A stretch of DNA of 64,000 nt, taken from NCBI GenBank assembly GCA_000437595.1, contig FR899900.1, positions 133,729 to 197,728 on the forward strand, given 5' to 3'. Both the position numbers and the translations under genes were made by a program. Positions 5,702 through 56,236 of the stretch are shown piece by piece. A model generated the notes under the pieces. That model had not been told where the DNA came from, made no database searches, and was given only the letters and a program-made list of their open reading frames with translations. The number at the start of each line of letters is the position of its first letter. Position 1 is the stretch's first letter. The DNA comes from Faecalibacterium sp. CAG:74 (GTDB lineage: Bacteria > Bacillota > Clostridia > Christensenellales > Aristaeellaceae).

Positions 5702-7507
5702 GTGTCCGATAGATTATCGAAGATTCGCAATTTCTGCATTATTGCCCATATTGACCATGGCAAGTCCACGCTGGCTGACCGCATTCTGGAAACGACGGGC
5801 GTTTTCCAGAAGCGCGAGATGGTGGAGCAGATTCTGGACAGCATGGAGCTGGAACGCGAGCGCGGCATCACCATCAAGTCCAAGGCGGTGCATATGCACT
5901 ATACCGCCAAGGACGGCAAAACCTACACGCTCAACCTGATTGACACGCCCGGCCATGTGGACTTCACCTACGAAGTCAGCCGTGCGCTGGCGGCGTGCGA
6001 AGGCGCGCTGCTGGTGGTGGACGCGACGCAGGGCATTGAGGCGCAGACGCTGGCGAACTGCTATATGGCGCTCGACCATGACCTCGAAATCATCCCGGTC
6101 ATCAACAAAATTGACCTACCCAGCGCGCAGCCGGAAGAAGTCCGGCAGGAAATTGAGGACGTTATCGGGCTGGATGCGTCCTATGCACCGTGCGTGAGCG
6201 CGAAAACTGGCCTGAACATCGATCAAGTGCTGGAAGCAGTGGTGAATTACGTTCCCGCGCCGCAGGGCGACGAGAACGCACCGCTGCAGGCACTGATTTT
6301 CGATGCGTTCTACGACAACTACCGCGGTGCAATCTGCTTCATCCGCGTCAAGCAGGGCACAATCCGCACGGGAATGCGGATGCGCATGATGGCGACGGGC
6401 GGCGAGTTCGACATTGTGGAAGTCGGCACGTTCGCGCCGAGCTATCAGCCGTGCGACGAATTGAAAGCGGGCGACGTAGGCTATGTCGCGGCCTCCATCA
6501 AGGATGTGCGTGAAACCCGCGTCGGCGACACAATTACCGACGCCATGAATCCGGCGGATTGCCCCCTGCCCGGCTATCGGCAGGTGACGCCGATGGTCTA
6601 CTGCGGCGTGTATCCGGCGGACGGCGCGGACTATCCGGCGCTCAAAGATGCGCTGGAGAAGCTGCGCATGAACGACGCTTCCCTCTCCTTTGACCCGGAA
6701 ACGTCCGTCGCACTGGGCTACGGCTTCCGCTGTGGCTTCTTGGGGCTGCTGCACATGGACATCATCACCGAGCGGCTGGAGCGCGAATGGGACTTGAACC
6801 TCGTCACCACCGCGCCGAGCGTCATCTACCGCATTACGAAAACCGATGGCACGGTGCTGATGTGCGACAACCCGATGGCGCTGCCGCCCATTGGCGAAAT
6901 TGCCATGATGGAAGAGCCGTTCGTCCACGCGGAAATCTTCACGCCGCAGGACAGCGTCGGCACGATTATGGACTTGTGTCAAGACCGGCGCGGCATCTTC
7001 CTTGACATGCAGTACGAGGGCACGCGCGTCAAGCTGAATTACGACATTCCGCTCAACGAAATCATCTTCGACTTTTTTGACCAGATTAAGAGCCGCAGCC
7101 GCGGATACGCCTCGTTCGACTACGAATTCAAGGACTACCGCGAGAGCCAATTGGTCAAGCTGGATATTCTGCTCAACGGCGAAATCTGCGACGCGTTCTC
7201 TATCATCGTTCACCGCGACAAGGCGTATGGGCGCGGGCGTTCCATCTGCGAGAAGCTCAAAGACGTCATCCCGCGGCAGATGTTCGAGATTCCGATTCAG
7301 GCGGCCATCGGCGGCAAGGTCATCGCGCGTGAAACCGTCAAGGCGATGCGCAAGGACGTGCTGGCAAAGTGCTACGGCGGCGACATCAGCCGAAAGAAAA
7401 AGCTGCTGGAAAAGCAGAAAGAGGGCAAGAAGCGAATGCGGCAGTTCGGCACGGTGCAAGTGCCCAGCGAGGCATTCCTTGCCGTGCTGAAGATGGACAG
7501 CAACTGA
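5702..7507 (+). CDS. lepA: elongation factor 4 (LepA), translational GTPase
   Basis: [16 protein letters not shown]1 motif, [13 protein letters not shown], and the full-length LepA C-terminal domain. GTG start with the RBS GGAGGG. Confidence 0.95.
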
Positions 7508-7527
7508 CGCTGTCAGGAGGAAAAAAC

Positions 7528-8172
7528 ATGCTGTACCGCAAGTCTCAGGTCAGCGACCGCTGGCTTCGTGCGCCGCTCCAAGCGCCCACTGCGCTGCATC
7601 AGCCGCTTTCCTACATTTCCCGCAGCCATATTGCCGACGTGTTTGCGTCGCAGGAGAACGGGCGAAAGGACATTTCCGTCTGCTTCACGGGGCATCGGGC
7701 GATTCCGCCGCAGGAGCTTCCTGCGCTGACAGAGCGGCTTGACCGGGTGCTGAAAGCACTGTATCAGCACGGGTTTCGGGATTTTATCTGCGGCGGCGCG
7801 CTGGGATTTGACACGCTGGCAGCGCAGCGCATTCTGCTGATGCGGACGCACCATGCGGATGTTCGGCTTCGGCTGGCGATTCCGTGCAGCACGCAGTCCG
7901 CGCGATGGAAAGCGTCGGATTGCCTGATTTACGAGCAGCTGCTGTATGCCGCCGACGAGACAGTTGTCCTCTCCAGCCACTACTATGAGGGCTGCATGTA
8001 CATGCGGAATCGGTACATGGTGGACAACAGCGCATTTTGCGTCTGCTACCTGAATCGGCAGAAGGGCGGCACGATGTACACCGCGCTCTACGCCATGCAG
8101 GAGGGGCTTCCGCTGCTGAATTTGGCAATCGCCAGCGACTGCGAGCGCCTGATTCAGAAAGCAAAGGTATGA
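7528..8172 (+). CDS. DUF1273/SLOG-family protein (YoqJ/UPF0398-like)
   Basis: The CFTGHR motif near the N-terminus and overall similarity to DUF1273. The start was trimmed to ATG 7528 after AGGAGGAAAAAAC; the longer 7369 ORF would overlap lepA. Confidence 0.6.
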   Translation: MLYRKSQVSDRWLRAPLQAPTALHQPLSYISRSHIADVFASQENGRKDISVCFTGHRAIPPQELPALTERLDRVLKALYQHGFRDFICGGALGFDTLAAQRILLMRTHHADVRLRLAIPCSTQSARWKASDCLIYEQLLYAADETVVLSSHYYEGCMYMRNRYMVDNSAFCVCYLNRQKGGTMYTALYAMQEGLPLLNLAIASDCERLIQKAKV

Positions 8173-8176
8173 AAAA

Positions 8177-8209
8177 AGCAGGGGAATGCTTGTTTCCCCT
8201 GCTTTTTAT
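8177..8209. terminator. bidirectional rho-independent terminator
   Basis: AGCAGGGGAA..TTCCCCTGCT hairpin flanked by A-run and T-run, between convergent genes. Confidence 0.7.
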
Positions 8210-8372
8210 ACTAATTCGATTCTAAAACATGGCATCGAGCATAGCAGATTTTTCGTTCCGGCAAAGCTGAGTGAAGCGAGGCGTACTGGAGGTACGCGCG
8301 AGCGGAACGAAGCAAAGCCGGGGCGGAAAAGATGCTGTGCGAATGACATGCTTTAGATGAGAAGTAGTATTA

Positions 8373-45279: not shown

Positions 45280-46215
45280 ATGGTACAGGCAGCCGACTTT
45301 GCCAAGACGCTTCAATTGACGGTGCTGTCCCCTTCCACGCAGACGGAATGGGATATCCGCACCACCGACCTGAATCGTCCGGGTATGCAGTTCTGCGGCT
45401 TCTATGAATATTTCCCATTTGAGCGTCCACAGGTCATCGGCAAGGTCGAAATGACGTATTTGGAGAACCTTGAACCGGAAGTACGCCGTCAAATGCTCAA
45501 AAAGTACTTCTCCTTCGACATTCCCTGCGTCATCATCTGCCGCGGGATGCATCCGCCGGAAGAGCTGCTGGAAGCCGCCGCCGCGCGCAATATCGCCGTC
45601 TATCAGACCGGAATGGTGACGACGAAGTTCTTCTTCACCGCCATCAACTACCTGAACCGCTGCCTCGCTCCGCGCGTAACGCGCCACGGCGTTCTGGTAT
45701 CGGTATACGGCATGGGCGTGCTGATTACGGGCGACAGCGGCGTGGGCAAGAGCGAAGCCGCACTGGAGCTGATTCGCCGCGGGCATCAGCTGGTGGCGGA
45801 TGACGTGGTGGACATCTGCCGCGTGTCGGACAACCGTCTGACCGGCGAATGCCCGGAGATGGTGCGCCACTTCATGGAGATCCGCGGCATCGGCATCATC
45901 GACATCCGCGCCATGTACGGCATCGGCGCCGTCGCACAGAGCAAGTCCATCGACCTTGTGATTCACATGGAGAAGTGGGTCGAGGGCAAGGAGTACGACC
46001 GGCTTGGGCTGAATGACGAGTACATCACGATTCTTGGCGTGAAAGTACCCAGCCAGACCATGCCGGTGCGGCCGGGGCGCAACCTCGCCATCATCATCGA
46101 GGTGGCGGCGCGCAACCTGTCCATGAAGAAGCTCGGTTTCAGCGCCGCACGGGAGCTTGACCGCCGCATGAACGAAATGATCATGAAGCGTTCCAATCCC
46201 GACGCGCAGAATTAG
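45280..46215 (+). CDS. hprK: HPr kinase/phosphorylase
   Basis: Walker A GDSGVGKSE and the full-length HprK N and C domains. Confidence 0.9.
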   Translation: MVQAADFAKTLQLTVLSPSTQTEWDIRTTDLNRPGMQFCGFYEYFPFERPQVIGKVEMTYLENLEPEVRRQMLKKYFSFDIPCVIICRGMHPPEELLEAAAARNIAVYQTGMVTTKFFFTAINYLNRCLAPRVTRHGVLVSVYGMGVLITGDSGVGKSEAALELIRRGHQLVADDVVDICRVSDNRLTGECPEMVRHFMEIRGIGIIDIRAMYGIGAVAQSKSIDLVIHMEKWVEGKEYDRLGLNDEYITILGVKVPSQTMPVRPGRNLAIIIEVAARNLSMKKLGFSAARELDRRMNEMIMKRSNPDAQN

Positions 46216-46260: not shown

Positions 46261-47205
46261 ATGATTTATGTTGGTATTGACGTTGGCGGCACGGGCATTC
46301 AGGTCGGTCTGGTGGACGAAAGCGGCAAGATTCTGTGCAAGGGCGGCATCGTCACCCGCACGGATATTCCCTTCGACATGCAGGTGAAAGCGATGGCGGA
46401 CTGCGTGCTGGACACCATCGACAAGGGCGGCTACACGCTGGGTGACGTGAAGGCCATCGGCGCGGGTGTTCCCGGCGTAACCGACCCCCGCACGGGCAAT
46501 ATTGCGTTCTGCACCAACCTCGGCTGGGTGGACGTGCCGTTTGTGCAGGAGTTCAACAAGCACATTGCCAAGCCCGTTTTCGTCGGCAATGACGCGACGG
46601 TCGCAGGGCTGGCAGAGAGCGTTGCGGGCGTGAGCGCGGGTTCGGACAGCAGCGTGTTCATCACCCTCGGCACAGGCGTCGGCGGCGGCATCGTTTTTAA
46701 TGGCAAGGTCTGGAACGGCTTCCACGGCGTCGGCAGCGAAATTGGTCACATGATTCTCGAACTTGACGGCGAGCCGTGCACCTGCGGCAACTACGGCTGC
46801 GTCGAGCGCTACTGCTCCGCGACCGCCATCATCCGCATGGCGCGTGAGCTCTGCGCGGTGCACCCGGAAAGCGAAATCGTGAAGGTGTGCGAGGGCGACC
46901 TGAACCGCGTGAACGCGAAGGTTGTTTTCGACGCGGCGAAGAACGGCGACGAAATCGCGCTCAAGGTGTTCCACCGCTATGTGAAGTATCTGGGTCAGCT
47001 GGTTGCCAGCCTGGTTAACTGCATTGACCCGGAGGTTATCGTGCTGGGCGGCGGCGTAAGCAAAGCGGGTGACTTCCTGCTGGACGCTGTTCGTGCGGAA
47101 GCGCGGCGCTATGTGCTGTACAAGACGCTCCCGTCGGCGCGCATTGAGCTGGCGAAGCTCGGCCCGGATGCGGGTATCATCGGCGCGGCGATGCTGGGCA
47201 AGTAA
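46261..47205 (+). CDS. glcK: ROK family glucokinase
   Basis: IGIDVGGTGI N-terminus and the ROK zinc motif CTCGNYGCVERY. Confidence 0.9.
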   Translation: MIYVGIDVGGTGIQVGLVDESGKILCKGGIVTRTDIPFDMQVKAMADCVLDTIDKGGYTLGDVKAIGAGVPGVTDPRTGNIAFCTNLGWVDVPFVQEFNKHIAKPVFVGNDATVAGLAESVAGVSAGSDSSVFITLGTGVGGGIVFNGKVWNGFHGVGSEIGHMILELDGEPCTCGNYGCVERYCSATAIIRMARELCAVHPESEIVKVCEGDLNRVNAKVVFDAAKNGDEIALKVFHRYVKYLGQLVASLVNCIDPEVIVLGGGVSKAGDFLLDAVRAEARRYVLYKTLPSARIELAKLGPDAGIIGAAMLGK

Positions 47206-47270: not shown

Positions 47271-48473
47271 TTATTTATTCAGGCTGAAGCGGAACGTGTA
47301 GCCTTCTTCGCCGTAATGCTCATTGCCAACCCACAGCACCGTCTTGTCCGTGAGGTTATAGACGGCAGAGTGAATCGTCAGCGAGTTGGAATCGCCCGGA
47401 TTGCCCCAGTCGCGGCGGCTGACCGCATCGAGCAGACCCATCGCCGCTTCTTCGTCCGCCACGACGCCATTCAACTCCGCCAGACGGTCGCGCAGAAGCT
47501 CGTAGCGGTCAAGACCCGGTTTGTTCGCGTCCGCCGTGTAGTAATCCGGCGTGATGATGAAGTTGGTAATCATCTGCCAGTCCGTCGCGCCGGAGAGCGG
47601 ATCAGCGTCGTTCCAGATGACGTTCAAGTGGCGGTTCGCGCCGTCCGCATCGTCGTCACTGCTGTCAGACACCCACTCCAGAATCGCGCTCTTGCCCGTG
47701 GAATCCGCAATCATATAATGGAAGCTCGTCTTCGCGGAGTCGTGCAGGTCGTACTTTTCCACCAGTTCGACCGCTTCTTCAACGGAGTCGGCGTAGTCCA
47801 GAACCATGCGGAGCATCGTGGTCGAGGTCAAATCCGGCTTGTCGGTCTGCTGATTCGTCGCGGCGACCTTCTCTCCGCCCTGATAGGACATGAAGATGCC
47901 GCACGCCACGCCCGCGTCATTCACGCCATCCAGCGGCGCAAAAGGAGCGGCAAGCGTGAGAATCTTCTGCCCGAAGGTGGTCACGTCCTTCGTGCTGTCT
48001 AAGCCGAGGAACTGCAAGTCCACCGTGGAATAGGAAGCATGACGTCCGTTGCCCGGATTCGTGTAGACGATGACGGTGTTCGTCTCGTGGAAATCGTAGT
48101 TGCGGCCGAAAACGCGGTCGCCGTCCGCCGTATCCGCGGTGAAAGCGGAGCAGGCGATTTCAGAGGTTTTGATGCTCATGGGGATAATGCCCTTGGTGAT
48201 GCTGTTCGTGATAAAGGAGATAAGCTCCGTGTCATTGGACGCGCCGCCCTGCGCCAGGAACTCATCGAAATGGTAGCCGCCGGAGACATTCAGCACATAC
48301 ACCGAGCCATCCTTATGGCTTTCATCGCGCTGCGTCACCTGCTGAAAGGACAGCAGCGTTGTGATTTCGTCGTGCCAGATGACGTAGACCGTGCCCACCA
48401 GCACGATCACCAGCGCCAGCAGGACGCCGAGGATGGTCAGCAATACTTTCTTCGCGGTTGATTTCTTCTTCAT
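47271..48473 (-). CDS. choloylglycine hydrolase family (linear amide C-N hydrolase, Ntn) protein with N-terminal membrane anchor and pro-region
   Basis: N-terminal TM helix (VLLTILGVLLALVIVLVGTV). A Cys-Ser-Ala-Phe-Thr ... GRNYDF block matches the catalytic Cys plus the GRN(L/M)D motif of bile-salt hydrolase/penicillin V acylase, here about 106 residues into the protein. Confidence 0.7.
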   Translation of the reverse strand: MKKKSTAKKVLLTILGVLLALVIVLVGTVYVIWHDEITTLLSFQQVTQRDESHKDGSVYVLNVSGGYHFDEFLAQGGASNDTELISFITNSITKGIIPMSIKTSEIACSAFTADTADGDRVFGRNYDFHETNTVIVYTNPGNGRHASYSTVDLQFLGLDSTKDVTTFGQKILTLAAPFAPLDGVNDAGVACGIFMSYQGGEKVAATNQQTDKPDLTSTTMLRMVLDYADSVEEAVELVEKYDLHDSAKTSFHYMIADSTGKSAILEWVSDSSDDDADGANRHLNVIWNDADPLSGATDWQMITNFIITPDYYTADANKPGLDRYELLRDRLAELNGVVADEEAAMGLLDAVSRRDWGNPGDSNSLTIHSAVYNLTDKTVLWVGNEHYGEEGYTFRFSLNK

Positions 48474-48638
48474 GGGGTCAGTTTTCCTCCCGTTGCGAAT
48501 TTGTTGATACAGTTAAGTATCATAGCATAAAAACGTAGATTTGTAAAGTGTGAATTTTTCGCGTCAAATTTGTGATTTCGCAAGGATTTTTGCCCCTCGA
48601 TGTTGTAATTATAATGCAATGAGAGGAGGGAAACGACG

Positions 48639-49643
48639 ATGACCATCAGGGAGCGATTGGAGCAGGAGGAGGCACAGCGTCTATCACCGCGGGCGGTCTG
48701 CGCGAAGGACACGCGCGGGCGCGAAAAGCCGATTGTCCCCTGCCCAATGCGGACGGACTTCCAGCGCGACCGCGACCGCATCATCCACTGCAAAGCGTTT
48801 CGCCGCCTGAAATACAAGACGCAGGTGTTCCTCGCGCCTGAAGGCGACCACTACCGCACGCGGCTGACGCACACGCTGGAAGTGGCGCAGATTGCCCGGA
48901 CGCTGGCGCGTTGTCTCCGGCTGAACGAGGACTTGACGGAAGCAATTGCGCTGGGGCACGATTTGGGGCATACGCCGTTTGGGCACATCGGCGAGCACGC
49001 GCTGGACAGACTAATACCTGAAGGCTTCCGGCACAACGAGCAGTCGAGGCGCTGCGTCGAGGCGCTGGAGAACGACGGAAACGGGCTGAACCTGACGTGG
49101 GAGGTGCGAGACGGCATCCTCTGTCACTCCGGCAAGCAGTTTCCCGCAACGCTGGAGGGGCAGTGCGTCCGCCGCGCCGACCGAATCGCGTATCTGAATC
49201 ACGATTTGGATGATGCCCTGCGCGCCGGGGTCTTGCAGCCCTTTGAACTGCCGGCGGACTGCTTGAAGGTGCTGGGGCAGACGCACGGCGAGCGCATCAA
49301 CACCATGATTTGCGACATTGTGGCGTGCAGCGCGGACAAGCCCGAACTGACCATGTCGCCGCTGGTTCAGGAGGCGATGGACGGCCTGCGGGAGTTCATG
49401 TTCGCGCGCGTGTACCGCGACCAGTGGCGGCAGGCGGAAGAAGCACGCTGCAAGCACGTTGTGGAAGCGCTGTTCAGCTATTACAGCGAGCATCCGGGCG
49501 AAATGCCGGAGGAGTTCGTGCTCATCGGCTACAAGGAAGGCACGGCACGCGCTGTGTGCGACTTTGTATCATGCATGACCGACCGCTACGCCATCCGCAC
49601 CTATCAGCAGCTGTTCGTGCCGAGCGGGTTTTCGGCAATATAA
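48639..49643 (+). CDS. dgt: dGTPase-like deoxynucleoside triphosphate triphosphohydrolase (HD domain)
   Basis: HD motif TRLTHTLEVAQI, HDLGHTPFGH, in the conserved position upstream of dnaG. Confidence 0.85.
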   Translation: MTIRERLEQEEAQRLSPRAVCAKDTRGREKPIVPCPMRTDFQRDRDRIIHCKAFRRLKYKTQVFLAPEGDHYRTRLTHTLEVAQIARTLARCLRLNEDLTEAIALGHDLGHTPFGHIGEHALDRLIPEGFRHNEQSRRCVEALENDGNGLNLTWEVRDGILCHSGKQFPATLEGQCVRRADRIAYLNHDLDDALRAGVLQPFELPADCLKVLGQTHGERINTMICDIVACSADKPELTMSPLVQEAMDGLREFMFARVYRDQWRQAEEARCKHVVEALFSYYSEHPGEMPEEFVLIGYKEGTARAVCDFVSCMTDRYAIRTYQQLFVPSGFSAI

Positions 49644-49865
49644 CAAGCGTTCTTCGCATTTTCCCGCTTTTTTTCCGAAGATTCCAAAAACACAAGGCTG
49701 AAACAAGCAGGAAATTTCGATTTCTTGGCGAATTAAACTGATGGATGAGCAGAGACAGCCCTGCAAGCCATCCAAATAACATGTTGTGTTCCCCGTTCCT
49801 GTTGGTTCCGGGTGTACTTTTTGTGTTCCTTGGCAGAACGCTTTTTGAGGGAGGTGAGCGGTGCC

Positions 49866-51653
49866 GTGCGTTTTCCGCCTTCATGGCTGGATGAGCTCCG
49901 CGCGCGTGCGGACATCGTTCAGATCGTTGGGCAGTACGTCCAGCTCAAAAAGAATGGGCGCAAATACTGGGGGCTATGCCCCTTCCATGGAGAAAAAACC
50001 GCATCTTTCTCCGTGGATCCGGAAAAGCAGCTGTTCTACTGCTTCGGCTGCAAGGCGGGCGGCAGCGTCATCCATTTTGTGATGGAGATTGAACATCTGC
50101 CGTTTCCCGAAGCGGTGAAGCATCTGGCGGATCAGCTGCACATGCCGCTGCCGCAGATGGAGGCCGACCCGGATTATCAGCGGCGGCAGACGCAGCGCGA
50201 GCGACTGCTGGCGTGCAATCGGGATGCGGCGCACTTCTTCTACGAAACGCTCTTCACCCCCGCGGGGCAGCCGATGCTGGATTATTTGAAGCGCCGCGGC
50301 GTATCCGACGGCGTCATCCGCAAATTCGGTCTGGGCGCAGCGCCGAACAGCTGGGATGCTTTAACCCGCGCGATGCAGGCAAAGGGCTACACCACCGAAG
50401 AGCTGCAAATGGCTGGGCTGATTGTCATCAAAGATGCGGAGGAAGCGACGGCGGATCGCCCTGCGCGCTCGCGCCGCGCTTTTGACATGTTCCGCAACCG
50501 CGCGATTTTCCCCATCATCGACCAATACGGCAACGTCTTGGCGTTTGGCGGGCGCGCAATTGAGAACGTGCAGCCGAAGTACCTCAACACGTCCGACACC
50601 CCCATTTTCAACAAGCGTTTGGGCGTGTACGCGGCAAATCTTCTGCGCAAAGAGCGGCACTTGGAGCGTGTGGTGCTGGTCGAGGGGTACATGGACGTCG
50701 TTTCGCTGACGCAGTTCGGCGTGACCGGCGTCTGCGCGACACTCGGCACGGCGCTGACGAACGAACAGGCAAAGCTGCTCAAACGCTTTGCGCCGATGGT
50801 ATACTTGTCCTACGATGGCGACAGCGCGGGGCAGCACGCCATCCTGCGCGGTCTGGATATACTGGAGGCGGAAGGCATTCCGGCGCGCGTGCTGGATTTT
50901 CCTGACGGGCTTGACCCGGACGAATTCATCCGCCGCGACGGGAAAGAAGGCTTCGACAAGCTGCCTGCCCTGACGCCGCAAGCCTACCGGATGCGTCGGC
51001 TTCGCGCGGAACACGACCTGACCACGCAGGAGGGGCGAACCGCCTACGCGAAGGCGTGCGCCGCGATCCTGCGGAACTTGGAGCCGGTGGAGATGGAGAA
51101 CGCCCTGCAGGAGCTCATCGTGCAGACGGGCTTCAGCCGCGATGTGCTGATTGCGCAAATCGGCATGACGCCGCCGAAGGACATCACTTCTGCGCCTCCC
51201 CTGCCCGCGCGAATCGCTCGTCCGCCTGCGACGCCTGTCCCGGAGCCGGAAAACGCCGACGAGGATGTACGCGCGGAGGAGCTGCTGCTTTCGCTGATTG
51301 CCACGTCGCGTCTGCCGGAAGATTTAGCGCAGGAGGACGACTTCCGCGACCCGCTGCTCAAGGAGCTGTTTCTGCAGCTGCAAAGCGGTGTGTCCGCCGC
51401 GTCACTGGTGGAAAGCCAGAGCGACGAGGTGGTGCGCGCCCGCGTCAGTCATCTGCTGATGGCGCAGAGCGGCGAAAGCACGGATCAAATGCTGCAAATG
51501 GCGCACGACTGCCTATCGCGGATGCGCTTGAAACGAGCGCGCGCGCAGTATGACGAGATTATGAAGCGCATCAAAACGCTCTCCGGCGCAGAAAAAATGC
51601 AGGCGCTGGATGAAGCAAAGCAGCTGACTGCCACCATCAACCGACTGAAATAA
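49866..51653 (+). CDS. dnaG: DNA primase
   Basis: Zinc ribbon (CPFHGEKTASFSV..CFGC), TOPRIM domain (EGYMDV), and C-terminal helicase-interaction domain. The start is uncertain: a GTG at 49866 about 11 nt after GGAGG was chosen, and the 49812 GTG is less likely. Confidence 0.85.
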   Translation: MRFPPSWLDELRARADIVQIVGQYVQLKKNGRKYWGLCPFHGEKTASFSVDPEKQLFYCFGCKAGGSVIHFVMEIEHLPFPEAVKHLADQLHMPLPQMEADPDYQRRQTQRERLLACNRDAAHFFYETLFTPAGQPMLDYLKRRGVSDGVIRKFGLGAAPNSWDALTRAMQAKGYTTEELQMAGLIVIKDAEEATADRPARSRRAFDMFRNRAIFPIIDQYGNVLAFGGRAIENVQPKYLNTSDTPIFNKRLGVYAANLLRKERHLERVVLVEGYMDVVSLTQFGVTGVCATLGTALTNEQAKLLKRFAPMVYLSYDGDSAGQHAILRGLDILEAEGIPARVLDFPDGLDPDEFIRRDGKEGFDKLPALTPQAYRMRRLRAEHDLTTQEGRTAYAKACAAILRNLEPVEMENALQELIVQTGFSRDVLIAQIGMTPPKDITSAPPLPARIARPPATPVPEPENADEDVRAEELLLSLIATSRLPEDLAQEDDFRDPLLKELFLQLQSGVSAASLVESQSDEVVRARVSHLLMAQSGESTDQMLQMAHDCLSRMRLKRARAQYDEIMKRIKTLSGAEKMQALDEAKQLTATINRLK

Positions 51654-51734
51654 TGCAGTCGTTATGGAAATTGCAATTTGTTTATCGCTACCGAGCCGGA
51701 AAACCCGGCTGTATCACAAGAAGGAGAGTTCAAC

Positions 51735-52850
51735 TTGACGCTTTCGCAGAATGGCCGTCCGTCACCGCTTGACGAACTGTACGAATACGCAAAAAACAAA
51801 GGCACGATCACTTATCAGGAAGTGACCGATCGTCTGGGCAATACTTTTTTTGAGGCCGATCAGCTGGAGAAGGTGCTGGACAAGCTGGAGAGTCTGGGCG
51901 TGACCGTGGTGGATTCCGCGGAAATCCCGGATACATCCCCCGCTGCCATGGAAGTGCCCGATCCCGCGCTGAACGACGACCTGAGCGAAGCTGATGTCAT
52001 TTCCGCCGACGACCCGGTGCGCATGTATCTGAAGGAAATCGGGCGCATTCCGCTGCTAACGAGCGAAGCGGAAATTGAAGTTGCCAAGCAGCTGGAAAGC
52101 GACGACCCCGCCATCCGCAACGAGGCGAAACGCCGCCTGAGCGAAGCGAACCTGCGCCTTGTCGTGTCGATTGCCAAGAAGTACGTTGGGCGCAGCAAGA
52201 ACTCCATGAGCCTGCTCGACCTGATTCAGGAGGGCAACCTCGGGCTGATGAAGGCCGTGGAGAAGTTCGACTACACCAAGGGCTTCAAGTTCTCCACCTA
52301 CGCGACGTGGTGGATTCGGCAGGCTATCACCCGCTCGATTGCCGATCAGGCGCGTACCATCCGCATCCCCGTGCACATGGTGGAAACAATTAACCGCATC
52401 GTGCGCGTGAACCGCCAGCTTCAGCAGAAGCTGGGGCGTGAGCCGCGCCCGGAGGAAATCGCAAAGGAACTGGGCATCAGCGTGAGCAAGGTGCAGGAAA
52501 TCATCAAGATTGCGCAGGAGCCGGTGTCGCTCGAATCCCCGATTGGCGAGGAGGAGGACAGCCACCTCGGCGACTTCCTCGAAGACGACAAGACGCCGCC
52601 GCCCTCCCAGATTGTGGCGGAAAGCATGATGAAGCAGACGCTTTCCGATGTGCTGCACATGCTGACGCCGCGCGAAGAGCAGGTCATTCGGATGCGCTAC
52701 GGGCTGGATGACGGTCAGCAGCGTACGCTGGAGGAAGTTGGCAAGGCGTTCAACGTCACCCGCGAGCGCATCCGCCAAATTGAGGTGAAGGCGCTGCGCA
52801 AGATTAAGCGCCCGAACATGTCCAAGAATCTGGTGGACTACATGGATTGA
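51735..52850 (+). CDS. RNA polymerase sigma factor, group 1-like (RpoD family) diverged paralog
   Basis: Complete regions 1.2, 2.1-2.4, 3 and 4.2 ([63 protein letters not shown]). It has an SKNSMS insertion in region 2.1 and a divergent C-terminal tail. Proposed TTG start at 51735 after AAGGAGAG. Confidence 0.85.
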
Positions 52851-52885
52851 TGATTCCCTGTTGGGCTGAAGGGAGTGGATTCCGC

Positions 52886-53986
52886 TTGACACAAACCCCG
52901 GATGGCCGCCAAAAGCGGCTTGATGACCTCTATGAATACGGCAAGAAGAAGGGCACGCTGACCTACAAGGAGATTATGGAACGCCTGATGGATCTCTACA
53001 TCGAGCCGGATCAGCTGGACAAGGTGCTGGAGAATCTCGAAGCGCTCGGCGTGACCGTCATCAATGAAAACGACCCGCAGCCCGCGCAGTCCAGCGAGGA
53101 CACCCCCCTTGACACGATTAACCTGTCCGTCCCCGACGGTGTGAGTTCCGACGACCCTGTCCGCCTGTATTTGAAAGAAATCGGCAAATATCCCCTGCTG
53201 ACCACCGAGGAAGAAATTGCGCTGGCAAAGCAGATTGCGGAAGGCACGCCAGAGGAGCAAGCAGCGGCAAAAAAGAAGCTCAGTGAAGCGAACCTGCGCC
53301 TTGTGGTGTCCATCGCCAAGCGCTATGTCGGGCGCGGAATGCAGTTTCTTGACCTGATTCAGGAGGGCAACCTCGGCTTAATCAAAGCGGCAGAGAAATT
53401 CGACTACACCAAGGGCTACAAGTTTTCTACCTACGCGACGTGGTGGGTTCGGCAGGCGATTACCCGCGCCATCGCCGATCAGGCGCGCACGATTCGCATT
53501 CCCGTGCACATGGTGGAGACCATCAACAAACTGATTCGCGTCAATCGTCAGCTGGCGCAGGAGCTGGGGCGCGACCCCACACCCGCGGAAATCGCGAAGG
53601 AAATGGGCATCAGCGAGAGCAAAGTGCGCGAAATCATCAAGATTGCGCAGGAGCCGGTGTCGCTGGAAACCCCGATTGGCGAGGAAGAGGACAGCCATCT
53701 GGGCGACTTCATCGAGGATGAGAACGCGCCCGCGCCGGCGGAGGTGGCGTCCAACGCCATGATGCGCGAACAATTGCAGGAAGTGCTGCACACACTGACC
53801 CCGCGCGAGGAGAAGGTCATCCGCCTTCGTTTCGGGCTGGAGGATGGACAGGCGCACACGCTGGAGGAAGTTGGCAAGGAGTTCAACGTCACCCGCGAAC
53901 GCATCCGGCAGATTGAAGCAAAGGCACTGCGCAAGATTCGCCACCCCGGCCGTTCCAAGAAACTGCGCGACTACTATACGGAATAA
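52886..53986 (+). CDS. sigA: RNA polymerase sigma factor RpoD/SigA (principal sigma)
   Basis: It is closer to canonical Firmicute SigA than the upstream copy ([48 protein letters not shown]). Proposed TTG start at 52886 after GAAGGGAG. Confidence 0.85.
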
Positions 53987-54038: not shown

Positions 54039-54734
54039 ATGCTCGACGAAAGACTATCCCTCGCCGCGCAGCTGTACGAGCCGTGTGCGCTGGGCGCGGA
54101 TATCGGCACAGATCACGCGCTGCTCCCCTGCTATCTGCTGACGCACAACATTTGCCAAGAGATGGTTCTGGCAGATGTCAGCCCGAAGGCGCTTCTCCAC
54201 GCGGAAGAAAGTGTCCGCCGCCATCATTTGGAGAAGCGCGCGCATGTGCGGCTCGCCGACGGGCTGGATGCGCTGACCGAACCTTGCGGGTGTGTGTCAA
54301 TGATGGGCATGGGCGGCGAAACCATCCGCACAGTGCTGCTTAGCGGCGCAGAGAAGCTCTGCGGAGCGGTACTGGTGCTTTCCTCGCATACGGAGCAGCC
54401 GCTCGTCCGCCGGACATTGCCTGAAATCGGCTACCACATCGTGCAGGAGAAACTCTGCCAAGCGGCGGGGCGCTTTTACATCTTCTGGCGCGCCGAACCG
54501 GGGCAGGCGGACGACTGGACGGCGGAGGAAGTGCACTACGGGCGCTTGCTGTGGGTGCAGAATTCGCCGAAAATGCTGCTGGACTACTGCCGCTACCGCA
54601 TCAAGGTGATGGACGACCGCCTGACCGGGCTGGCATCCGCAGTGGGTGACGTAAGCCAGATTCGCGGCGAAATTTCGGCGGAAATCGACTTTTATCAACG
54701 GAAAATCACGGAATTGGAGGGTGCATTATGCTGA
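54039..54734 (+). CDS. trmK: tRNA (adenine22-N1)-methyltransferase
   Basis: YqfN/TrmK family, in the conserved sigA-trmK-nif3 order. The start was trimmed to ATG 54039 after GGGAGG. Confidence 0.75.
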   Translation: MLDERLSLAAQLYEPCALGADIGTDHALLPCYLLTHNICQEMVLADVSPKALLHAEESVRRHHLEKRAHVRLADGLDALTEPCGCVSMMGMGGETIRTVLLSGAEKLCGAVLVLSSHTEQPLVRRTLPEIGYHIVQEKLCQAAGRFYIFWRAEPGQADDWTAEEVHYGRLLWVQNSPKMLLDYCRYRIKVMDDRLTGLASAVGDVSQIRGEISAEIDFYQRKITELEGALC

Positions 54735-55486
54735 CGGTACAGCGGGTTTACGAGCTGATTGACGCGCTTGCGCCGTTTGACACACAGGCGGATTTCGACA
54801 ATTCCGGCTTGCTGGTGGGCAATCCACAGGCGGAAGTGACAGGCATCCACCTTGCGCTGGATGTGACCGACCGCGTGATTGACGATGCGCTGGCAGCGGG
54901 CGCGAACCTGATTGTGACGCATCATCCTCTGATGTTTTCCGCCCGGAAGCGCCTGACTGAGGCGGATTACGAGGGGCATCTGCTGATTCGGCTGATTGCA
55001 AACGGCTTATCGCTGATTGCCGCGCACACGAACTTCGACCAAGCATCCGGCGGCATGAACGACACGCTGGCGGGACTGCTGGGGCTGGAGAACATCGTCG
55101 GCGAGGGATTCCTGCGCGTGGGAGATTTATCCGCACCGATGACTGCGGAAGCATTCGCGGATTTTGCCGCGCGGCAGTTAGGCGACACAGTGCGCGTGAT
55201 GGGGCATCGGGAGGCGCTCATCCACCGCGTCGGCCTCTGCTCCGGCGGCGGGTGCGACGAGTGGGCAGATGCGCACGCCATGGGCGCGGATGCTTTCCTC
55301 ACAGGCGAGGTGAAGCACCACATTGCGCTGGATGCATCCTACCACGGCGTGGTGCTGTTGGAGGCGGGACACTTTGCCACGGAAAATCCCGGTATTTTTG
55401 CGCTCATGAAGGCTTTACAAAACGCGCCGGATATAGTACAATGGAAAATGCACATTTCGCGCTCCGAACGCAGCGCGTATGAGTGA
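54728..55486 (+). CDS. Nif3-like dinuclear metal center protein (YqfO)
   Basis: NIF3 family (LIVTHHPLMF, IAAHTNFD). Its start overlaps the trmK stop. Confidence 0.85.
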   Translation: MLTVQRVYELIDALAPFDTQADFDNSGLLVGNPQAEVTGIHLALDVTDRVIDDALAAGANLIVTHHPLMFSARKRLTEADYEGHLLIRLIANGLSLIAAHTNFDQASGGMNDTLAGLLGLENIVGEGFLRVGDLSAPMTAEAFADFAARQLGDTVRVMGHREALIHRVGLCSGGGCDEWADAHAMGADAFLTGEVKHHIALDASYHGVVLLEAGHFATENPGIFALMKALQNAPDIVQWKMHISRSERSAYE

Positions 55487-55522: not shown

Positions 55523-56236
55523 GTACTTATGGACCAGCTTGCTATGTTATGGCAGTATCAAGTGGAAGACCGCAAGGCTGACAAGCTCGAACAGGAGTTG
55601 AGCCGCAGTCCGCTGCGCCAGAAGATGAATACCTGCCGCACGCAGTTCAACGCCAAGCAGAAGCAGTACAAGCAGATGGAAGAGCAGGTGGCGATTCTCT
55701 CTGACCGCAAGGATGCCATCCGCGATGCCATCACCCGCTGCGAAGAACAGCTGCGCCACCTGCAAAGCCGCTTCGAGCAGAATCCTCCGACCGAATTGGA
55801 TGATACGAAAGCGCTGCTGAGCGAAGTGAACCGCTTTCTGGAGACGATTGGCAGCTATGAGCAGGAAATGAAGCGCATGGCAAAGGATGCCAACGATTAC
55901 GATCAGAAGGAACGCAGCCTGCGCCGCGATGCCATTAAGCTGAAGGAAGAATTTGATAATCTCAAGAAGCAGTACGACAAGGAATCACCGGAAAAGGAAG
56001 CTGCCCTGAAGGCACAGAAGGCCATCGTCGCAAAGAAGGGCGAGGGCATTTCGCCGGAGCTGCTGGCACGCTATCACGAGATTAAGAAGCGCATCACGCC
56101 GCCGCTCGCTCGGCTGATTAACAACCAGTGCAGCGGATGCAATATGTCGCTGCCGTCGGCAGTGCTGAGCCGCGTCACGTCTGCCAACGGCGAGATTGTG
56201 GAGTGCGAAAGCTGCGGGCGTCTGCTGATTCCCTGA
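55523..56236 (+). CDS. zinc-ribbon/coiled-coil protein (COG1579, DUF164)
   Basis: Long coiled-coil region followed by C-terminal CSGCNMSL...CESCGRLL. It typically follows nif3. The start was trimmed to MDQLAML after AAGGAGGTACTT. Confidence 0.75.
   Translation, partial: VLMDQLAMLWQYQVEDRKADKLEQELSRSPLRQKMNTCRTQFNAKQKQYKQMEEQVAILSDRKDAIRDAITRCEEQLRHLQSRFEQNPPTELDDTKALLSEVNRFLETIGSYEQEMKRMAKDANDYDQKERSLRRDAIKLKEEFDNLKKQYDKESPEKEAALKAQKAIVAKKGEGISPELLARYHEIKKRITPPLARLINNQCSGCNMSLPSAVLSRVTSANGEIVECESCGRLLIP

Follow-up and report, generated by a model that had tools for sequence, protein, structure and literature searches.

Two tandem primary-type sigma-70 genes downstream of dnaG in Faecalibacterium

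Group 2 sigma factors, such as RpoS of E. coli, HrdA, HrdC and HrdD of Streptomyces, and SigB to SigE of cyanobacteria, are paralogs of the primary sigma factor that compete for core RNA polymerase, and their genes usually lie at separate, separately regulated loci. They are described as lacking region 1.1, which serves as a criterion for the group (PMC4598750). An extra primary-type sigma factor in a Firmicute is already known as well. C. difficile has SigA1 (CD1455) and SigA2 (CD1498), both assigned to group 1 and respectively 65% and 56% identical to SigA of B. subtilis; SigA1 has been assigned to exponential growth and SigA2, which is under a SigH promoter, to stationary phase (PMC7438776). 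Three sigA paralogs have been reported in Turicibacter sanguinis. Here we describe a locus in a stretch of 64,000 nucleotides (64 kb; hereafter the window) from contig FR899900.1 of Faecalibacterium sp. CAG:74, in which dnaG and trmK are separated by two full-length sigma-70 genes, arranged head to tail on the same strand with a gap of 35 nucleotides between them. All positions are given in the numbering of the window, and both sigma genes are on the plus strand. Faecalibacterium species belong to the most abundant commensals of the human gut, and their genetic manipulation is very hard. To our knowledge, their basic transcription machinery is essentially unstudied, and a literature search found no paper on the sigma pair of this genus.

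The upstream gene (copy 1; 51735-52850, plus strand) starts with a TTG codon at 51735, ends with a TGA stop codon at 52848-52850, and encodes a diverged, primary-like sigma-70 paralog of 371 amino acids. The downstream gene (copy 2; 52886-53986, plus strand) also starts with TTG and encodes a canonical SigA/RpoD protein of 366 amino acids. Each gene is preceded by a ribosome-binding site (RBS) on the plus strand: GAAGGAGAG at 51720-51728, 6 nucleotides before the TTG of copy 1, and GAAGGGAG at 52868-52875, inside the spacer between the copies. Both TTG starts are conserved in diverged relatives, and in two of these, L081 and L098, the RBS of copy 2 is kept as A(A/G)GGAGTGGAT. Some gene callers use an alternative start for copy 2, an ATG at 52850 that overlaps the stop codon of copy 1 and yields a protein of 378 amino acids; this ATG is missing in the diverged relatives, whereas the RBS and the TTG of copy 2 are kept. 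In both copies the Pfam Sigma70 regions 1.1, 1.2, 2, 3 and 4 score above cutoff. The coordinates agree with the original prediction, which had been made from the DNA letters of the window and had placed two full-length principal-type sigma genes after dnaG, each with its own RBS and TTG start.

The two proteins share 65% of their residues, and they differ in how closely they resemble a standard primary sigma factor, the upstream copy having been predicted as diverged and the downstream one as canonical. On the NCBIfam RpoD equivalog model NF006666 (cutoff 572 bits), copy 2 scores 602.8, above the cutoff, and copy 1 scores 536.9, below it. Both copies exceed the cutoff of 354 for the model of the C-terminal part of RpoD, TIGR02393 (RpoD_Cterm), with scores of 406 and 376. 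Copy 2 is 67% identical to B. subtilis SigA and copy 1 is 60% identical. Databases label both genes simply RpoD.

Both copies are under strong purifying selection. In an analysis of three diverged lineages (the window, L081 and L098), the ratio of nonsynonymous to synonymous divergence (dN/dS) is 0.05-0.09 for the whole gene in both copies and 0.02-0.05 over regions 1.2-4.2, values as low as or below those of the neighboring genes dnaG, trmK and nif3. L081 and L098 carry the tandem and are distant from the window, with synonymous divergence (dS) of 0.8-1.8, where synonymous sites are near saturation, and with flanking proteins that are 65-87% identical. The exact copy 1 protein is indexed in 7079 blocks of a public collection, and the order dnaG-copy 1-copy 2-trmK was found in 8 of the 8 places examined, comprising seven metagenome contigs of 1.3-3.0 Mb and one NCBI assembly record of 3.5 Mb.

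These observations bear on the two ways in which the original prediction could have failed, namely that one copy is a pseudogene or that the pair is a duplicate created by assembly. Chimeric sigA open reading frames are common in metagenome assemblies, and beyond this such an explanation is a possibility of the a priori kind. The pair is not an assembly artifact, because the copies are only 76% identical as DNA, their longest exact shared run is 35 nucleotides, and the tandem recurs in every place examined and in the diverged lineages. Nor is either copy a pseudogene, since both open reading frames are uninterrupted and their dN/dS values are low. We consider an artifact or a decayed copy to be extremely improbable.

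Chimeric assemblies do affect the apparent distribution of the pair. Matches to copy 1 of 66-85% identity (P0009-P0096; loci L085, L087, L088 and L097) were considered as possible tandems outside Faecalibacterium and were rejected as chimeras. By segment-wise identity most of these apparent homologs are mosaics, with one part 96-100% identical to copy 1 or copy 2 of Faecalibacterium and the remainder foreign. At L085, L087, L088 and L097 there is an abrupt switch of identity within copy 1 or where it ends, no more than 1.5-2.5 kb away from a contig end, and these four loci were left out of the evidence for the distribution of the pair. It seems that metagenome assemblies of relatives that occur together are especially prone to mis-joins in sigma genes. 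Taken at face value, the chimeras would falsely imply that other genera have the pair or that copy 1 is hypervariable.

The original prediction had brought up group 2 sigma factors, which Firmicutes were said generally to lack. Both copies lie downstream of dnaG in the conserved operon position, which is a criterion for group 1. Copy 1 scores 51.8 bits on the Sigma70_r1_1 model (cutoff 22.5) and stays below the cutoffs of curated group 2 models: 307.3 against 378.7 for RpoS (TIGR02394), 347.4 against 384.5 for the cyanobacterial model (TIGR02997), and 367.1 against 464 for SigB (NF005920). An acidic patch in region 1.1, which had been suggested as a check, is present in both copies, with a net charge of -3 to -7 in region 1.1 and of -7 to -11 in the likewise acidic linker. 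Because copy 1 keeps a full acidic region 1.1, it does not belong to group 2 by the region 1.1 criterion (PMC4598750). Judged from these sequence features, copy 1 is most likely a second primary-like sigma factor and copy 2 the standard SigA.

Sigma-70 proteins use conserved motifs for melting of the -10 element and for recognition of the -10, extended -10 and -35 promoter elements. In the alignment, the motifs of regions 1.2, 2.2, 2.3, 2.4, 3.0, 3.2 and 4.2 are unchanged in copy 1. The residues for promoter recognition and DNA melting (regions 2.3, 2.4, 3.0 and 4.2) are intact in both copies, with a single I/V difference between them. The claim that the two proteins have identical DNA-recognition residues in regions 2.4 and 4.2 was thereby borne out, as the motifs that had been quoted are present and intact in the alignment.

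Apart from this comparison of the two copies, copy 2 of the window differs from others at two motif positions. It reads DPVRLYL at 53152-53172, where the others have DPVRMYL, and TWWVRQ at 53437-53451, where the others have TWWIRQ. Both substitutions are particular to this lineage and do not occur in copy 2 of L081 or L098.

Differences between the copies accumulate elsewhere in the proteins. Identity is only 47% over the first 92 residues from the N-terminus, and copy 1 has an altered C-terminal tail (52806-52847, plus strand), so that the predicted differences at both ends of the upstream protein are real. A change was counted as fixed in one copy where it departs from a residue shared by the other copy and no fewer than 85% of 38 further SigA sequences. 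By this measure 17 lineage-fixed changes at conserved positions are found in copy 1 and 2 in copy 2, and none of the 17 changes of copy 1 (0/17) falls on a known promoter-contact residue. The insertion that had been read as SKNSMS in region 2.1 exists, but it is a net insertion of three residues, accompanied by substitutions, and it is located where regions 2.1 and 2.2 meet, at which place copy 2 reads GR---GMQFLD. Its three codons (52194-52202, plus strand) encode Ser-Lys-Asn (SKN) at residues 154-156, in the loop between the helices of regions 2.1 and 2.2, and L081 and L098 have the insertion as well.

Residue numbers for the fixed changes of copy 1 follow E. coli sigma-70 and are approximate. 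In region 2.1 an arginine is replaced by lysine at the K393 position, and the loop just before region 2.2 has G398S and F401L next to the SKN insertion. Region 3 contributes K462R (region 3.0), R495Q (region 3.1) and I523L (region 3.2), followed by A535V in the linker between regions 3.2 and 4.1. Region 4.1 has a threonine-to-methionine change at 550, a leucine-to-methionine change at 561, and F563Y, and region 4.2 has A592V, R599K and H600R, the last two of which are part of the altered C-terminal stretch. There, a tail of 14 residues replaces the RHPSRSKKLKDY of canonical SigA, and this tail is kept in all three lineages of copy 1.

An AlphaFold2 model of copy 1 (mean predicted local distance difference test score, pLDDT, 68; 70-89 in the domains) has normal sigma 1.1, 2, 3 and 4 domains, including a folded N-terminal domain at residues 11-59. 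In the model the insertion lengthens a loop (residues 151-159) between the helices formed by residues 140-150 and 160-177. The region 2.2 helix of sigma factors makes the main contact with the clamp helices of the beta-prime subunit, F563 and the C-terminal helix of sigma-70 touch the beta flap, and K593-H600 form a patch that contacts activators. The sites changed in copy 1 would then lie at surfaces that we take to be the core, flap and activator interfaces, an assignment made in approximate E. coli numbering.

A remodeled region 4 and a remodeled 2.1/2.2 surface could also have been selected for a different reason, as a means to block or redirect a protein that targets sigma, for instance a phage anti-sigma factor, which would make copy 1 a SigA that escapes such a regulator or phage. 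The placement of fixed changes in region 4.1, in the tail after region 4.2 and in the 2.1-2.2 loop, with untouched DNA-contact residues, would suit this explanation, and so would the F-to-Y change at the equivalent of E. coli F563, as the F563Y substitution in sigma-70 has been reported to weaken binding of AsiA to region 4 (PMC2988021). A single coincident substitution is nonetheless weak evidence, and nothing related to phages or defense adjoins the pair; a match to the NCBIfam model MzaA reflects generic sigma homology (342 against a cutoff of 800). Furthermore, we know of no sigma-binding phage or host protein of Faecalibacterium, and none was identified here. Escape from a sigma-targeting protein is thus very unlikely to be the basis of the pair. 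Equally doubtful is the related speculation that copy 1 may serve as a "hijack-proof" spare, in that an anti-sigma factor or host regulator that disables canonical SigA would miss copy 1, or the reverse. If this were true, the tandem sigma pair would be a defense or bypass device at the level of transcription in a very abundant human gut bacterium.

The changes in copy 1 appear to be old. Distances to P0107, an outgroup SigA protein, are 0.283 for copy 1 and 0.183 for copy 2, and the distance between the copies is 0.321; by three-point decomposition, the branch of copy 1 is about twice as long as that of copy 2. Among the Faecalibacterium lineages, nonsynonymous divergence (dN) over regions 1.2-4.2 is 0.021-0.053 for copy 1 and 0.048-0.055 for copy 2, so copy 1 evolves no faster. 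Because the branch of copy 1 is long, yet dN within the genus is no higher than that of copy 2, the history of copy 1 fits an early burst of change followed by stasis under purifying selection. Such a pattern would be expected of a duplicate that settles into a distinct, selected role.

The same data allow an assessment of the simplest account of the pair, according to which copy 1 is a redundant duplicate that does the same job as copy 2, raising or buffering the supply of SigA, with neutral sequence differences. Identical DNA-recognition residues, a shared operon in which the genes are 35 nucleotides apart and lack a detected separate promoter, and similar purifying selection on both copies are all compatible with a dosage effect. 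The excess of fixed changes at conserved positions in copy 1 (17 against 2), which include a conserved three-residue insertion and a remodeled tail, is not, and these changes are constant across lineages separated by dS of 0.8-1.8. Neutral drift would not freeze changes in this way, and purely redundant duplicates are usually lost or homogenized. We therefore regard a dosage duplicate as unlikely.

To place the duplication, we surveyed 80 species-representative Firmicute loci that were fetched with copy 1 (among the matches listed), counting sigA copies within 6 kb. A single sigA is present at 79 of these 80 loci. A second housekeeping-like sigma factor had been called unusual in Firmicutes, and it is indeed rare among these matches, but it is not without precedent, as C. 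difficile, Turicibacter and locus L051 (described below) have one too. The SigA proteins nearest to the pair from outside Faecalibacterium, P0107 and P0093, come from loci with one sigA each and the same gene order. In the single-copy relatives L099, L100 and L101 this order is HprK-ROK-dGTPase-dnaG-sigA-trmK-nif3-Zn-ribbon, and their DnaG proteins are 69-71% identical to that of the window.

A neighbor-joining tree was calculated from 272 alignment columns covering regions 1.2-4.2. Copy 1 and copy 2 each form a clade, with bootstrap values of 100% and 99%, and after removal of one long-branch Christensenella sequence the two clades are sisters with 93% support. Support for a grouping of copy 2 with the single-copy relatives that excludes copy 1 is below 1%. 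An extra short segment is shared by the two copies and the sister SigA proteins between regions 1.2 and 2.1 (ESDDPAI, EGTPEE or SGSPEE), which is absent from SigA of B. subtilis, C. difficile and other Oscillospiraceae. Since the nearest relatives have a single sigA in the same gene order and the copies are sister clades, we place a tandem duplication of sigA in the stem lineage of Faecalibacterium, after its split from the closest relatives, as deduced from gene order and tree. The proposed check by alignment, phylogeny and synteny thus came out in favor of a lineage-specific duplication.

In L099 and L100, the closest lineage with a single sigA, an open reading frame of 184 amino acids (6155-6709) lies between sigA and trmK, and we considered whether it is a decayed sigma remnant. 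Its C-terminus resembles sigma region 4 by eye only; the open reading frame has no Pfam match, its BLASTP E values are 0.19-1.2, and the probability from hhalign is 0.3%. A sigma origin is not supported.

The start context was duplicated together with the gene, the RBS and the TTG(AC) start included. The sequence AAGGAGAG followed by TTGAC is invariant at copy 1 in the relatives and is also found in the single-copy sister sigA genes. More widely in the clade, the sigA start is a TTG within TTGAC(A/G) behind a strong AAGGAG-type RBS, in both copies and in the single-copy relatives L100 and L101. For a housekeeping sigma gene, keeping a start codon other than ATG may be a way to limit or tune translation.

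We searched the surroundings of the pair for expression signals with a strict-consensus scan for sigma-70-type promoters. The scan found no separate promoter of this type near either copy; a SigH motif was not searched for. The 35-nucleotide spacer between the copies holds only an RBS, and no site resembling a promoter or a terminator was found there. Because of this short gap and the lack of such a site, the two sigma genes probably share a transcript with dnaG. About 28 nucleotides upstream of the ATG of the dGTPase gene, a perfect TATAAT at 48606-48611 with only a weak -35 element was overlooked by the strict scan and is a candidate for the operon promoter. In the spacer between dnaG and copy 1, a small hairpin (AGCCGG-aaaac-CCGGCT; 51694-51710, plus strand) is located about 10 nucleotides 5' of the RBS of copy 1. 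Its CCGG arms are retained in the alignment with L081 and L098, in which the loops differ. The hairpin is not a typical terminator, because no U-run follows it.

Taken together, we propose that copy 2 is the housekeeping SigA and that copy 1, after the tandem duplication in the Faecalibacterium stem, became a second primary-like sigma factor that uses the same promoters with altered partner contacts; we put the probability of this explanation at roughly 0.6. Copy 2 would have remained canonical, and copy 1 would have gone through its early burst of change and been held constant since then by purifying selection. Copy 1 keeps all residues known for recognition of the -10, extended -10 and -35 promoter elements and for DNA melting, as well as the acidic region 1.1 and the finger of region 3.2; because these are kept, it should form a productive holoenzyme on the promoters of copy 2. 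Its changes would act elsewhere: in the loop that is three residues longer beside the region 2.2 helix, in regions 3.0 and 3.1, in the 3.2 linker, in region 4.1, and in the basic patch of region 4.2 together with the tail. What may therefore distinguish the two sigma factors is how they compete for core, how they escape from promoters, or how they respond to activators or sigma-binding regulators, that is, their partner contacts rather than their promoter sequence specificity. If the copies are co-transcribed, any differential use would more likely arise post-transcriptionally or through partner proteins than from a promoter switch; the account is weakest at this point.

Several points weigh against this proposal. 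The assignment of the changed residues to interfaces is carried over from E. coli sigma-70 with approximate numbering. With a gap of 35 nucleotides and no internal promoter or terminator detected, the copies would normally be made together, and a growth-phase switch like that of C. difficile sigA2 is therefore harder to explain. A holoenzyme for stress or for a growth phase, or a competitor for core, had been suggested originally as possible roles of the second sigma factor. The sister relationship of the copies falls to 48% support when the long-branch Christensenella sequence is included in the tree. In addition, the label "housekeeping" for copy 2 comes solely from its conservative sequence, and it is copy 1 that has the ancestral position and RBS context after dnaG and that is at least as constrained within the genus.

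The last of these points raises the possibility that the roles are reversed, with copy 1 as the main vegetative sigma factor of Faecalibacterium and copy 2 as an auxiliary one. Copy 1 has retained the AAGGAGAG-TTGACG start context of the single-copy relatives, and the dN ranges given above show that, within the genus, it is no less conserved than copy 2 over regions 1.2-4.2. It is copy 2, however, that passes the RpoD equivalog cutoff failed by copy 1; copy 2 is also nearer to every outgroup SigA, and nearly all derived changes sit in copy 1. A reversal of roles is thus quite improbable, and we retain the proposal that copy 2 is the housekeeping SigA and copy 1 the second, primary-like sigma factor.

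The sigma genes are embedded in a conserved Firmicute gene block, which begins with the HprK gene (45280-46215) and a gene for a ROK kinase (46261-47205) and ends with a gene for a Zn-ribbon protein (ending at 56236). A dGTPase-like HD phosphohydrolase gene (48639-49643, plus strand; Pfam HD and HD_assoc) precedes dnaG in all relatives. The gene dnaG itself (49812-51653, plus strand) encodes DNA primase, with Pfam Zn_ribbon_DnaG, DNAG_N, Toprim and DnaB_bind matches, and has an uncertain start, for which gene callers give proteins of 595-613 amino acids. Downstream of copy 2 follow two neighbors that are conserved in synteny: trmK (54039-54734, plus strand; Pfam TrmK), for a tRNA m1A22 methyltransferase, and a gene of the NIF3/DUF34 family (54728-55486, plus strand; Pfam DUF34_NIF3). 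Between the ROK kinase and dGTPase genes, on the minus strand, a gene (47271-48473) encodes a linear amide C-N hydrolase of 400 amino acids from the CBAH/AAT family (choloylglycine-hydrolase family). L081, L098, L100 and L101 lack this gene at the corresponding place, and L088 has it; because of its patchy presence, it seems to have been inserted in a lineage-specific manner into a block that is conserved in other respects. In the whole 64-kb window, neither tRNA genes nor Rfam matches at the gathering threshold were found.

What is new in the Faecalibacterium pair is that the genes are in tandem within one operon, that they are conserved throughout an abundant gut genus, and that their divergence has left the promoter-contact motifs untouched. 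If two primary-type sigma factors share promoters, then promoter models, designs for heterologous expression and "rpoD" readings in metatranscriptomes must allow for both of them. The pair would then also offer a natural experiment in how the protein interfaces of a housekeeping sigma factor diverge while its DNA specificity is frozen. For users of databases there is a warning, in that many apparent homologs of copy 1 are artefactual mosaics from chimeric metagenome assemblies.

Compared with the canonical macromolecular synthesis operon, as found for example in B. subtilis, the locus has the same order of dnaG and sigA followed by trmK and nif3, and it differs in having a second, diverged sigA between dnaG and sigA. 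Copy 1 resembles sigma factors of group 2 by being a paralog of the primary sigma factor with near-identical -10 and -35 determinants that coexists with the primary sigma factor, and it is unlike them in having region 1.1, which is described as absent from group 2 (PMC4598750). In Turicibacter sanguinis the sigA genes are at separate loci, as judged by locus tags, whereas the Faecalibacterium genes are in tandem. A tandem does exist at L051, in a metagenome-assembled genome of the Acutalibacteraceae, where dnaG is followed by two full-length sigA genes in head-to-tail order (5968-7068 and 7162-8235; 63% mutual identity). In that pair it is the downstream copy that has diverged, with changes in region 3.0 (SRIIRLPVHMSEFIS), whereas in Faecalibacterium it is the upstream copy. 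The L051 pair appears to be an independent duplication, because it does not group with the Faecalibacterium copies in the tree.

The closest precedent is the SigA1/SigA2 pair of C. difficile. In both cases a Firmicute has two full-length, group 1-type SigA proteins, one canonical and one more diverged, and the pattern of identity to B. subtilis SigA (67% and 60% in Faecalibacterium) is parallel. Our tree, calculated without C. difficile SigA2, indicates that the Faecalibacterium pair is independent in origin from that of C. difficile. The two pairs also differ in arrangement. In C. difficile it is the canonical sigA1 that adjoins dnaG (CD1454), whereas in Faecalibacterium the diverged copy does so. 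The C. difficile genes are about 40 genes apart, and sigA2 has its own SigH-dependent promoter; the Faecalibacterium copies are direct neighbors within a single operon, and no sigma-70-type promoter of their own was detected.

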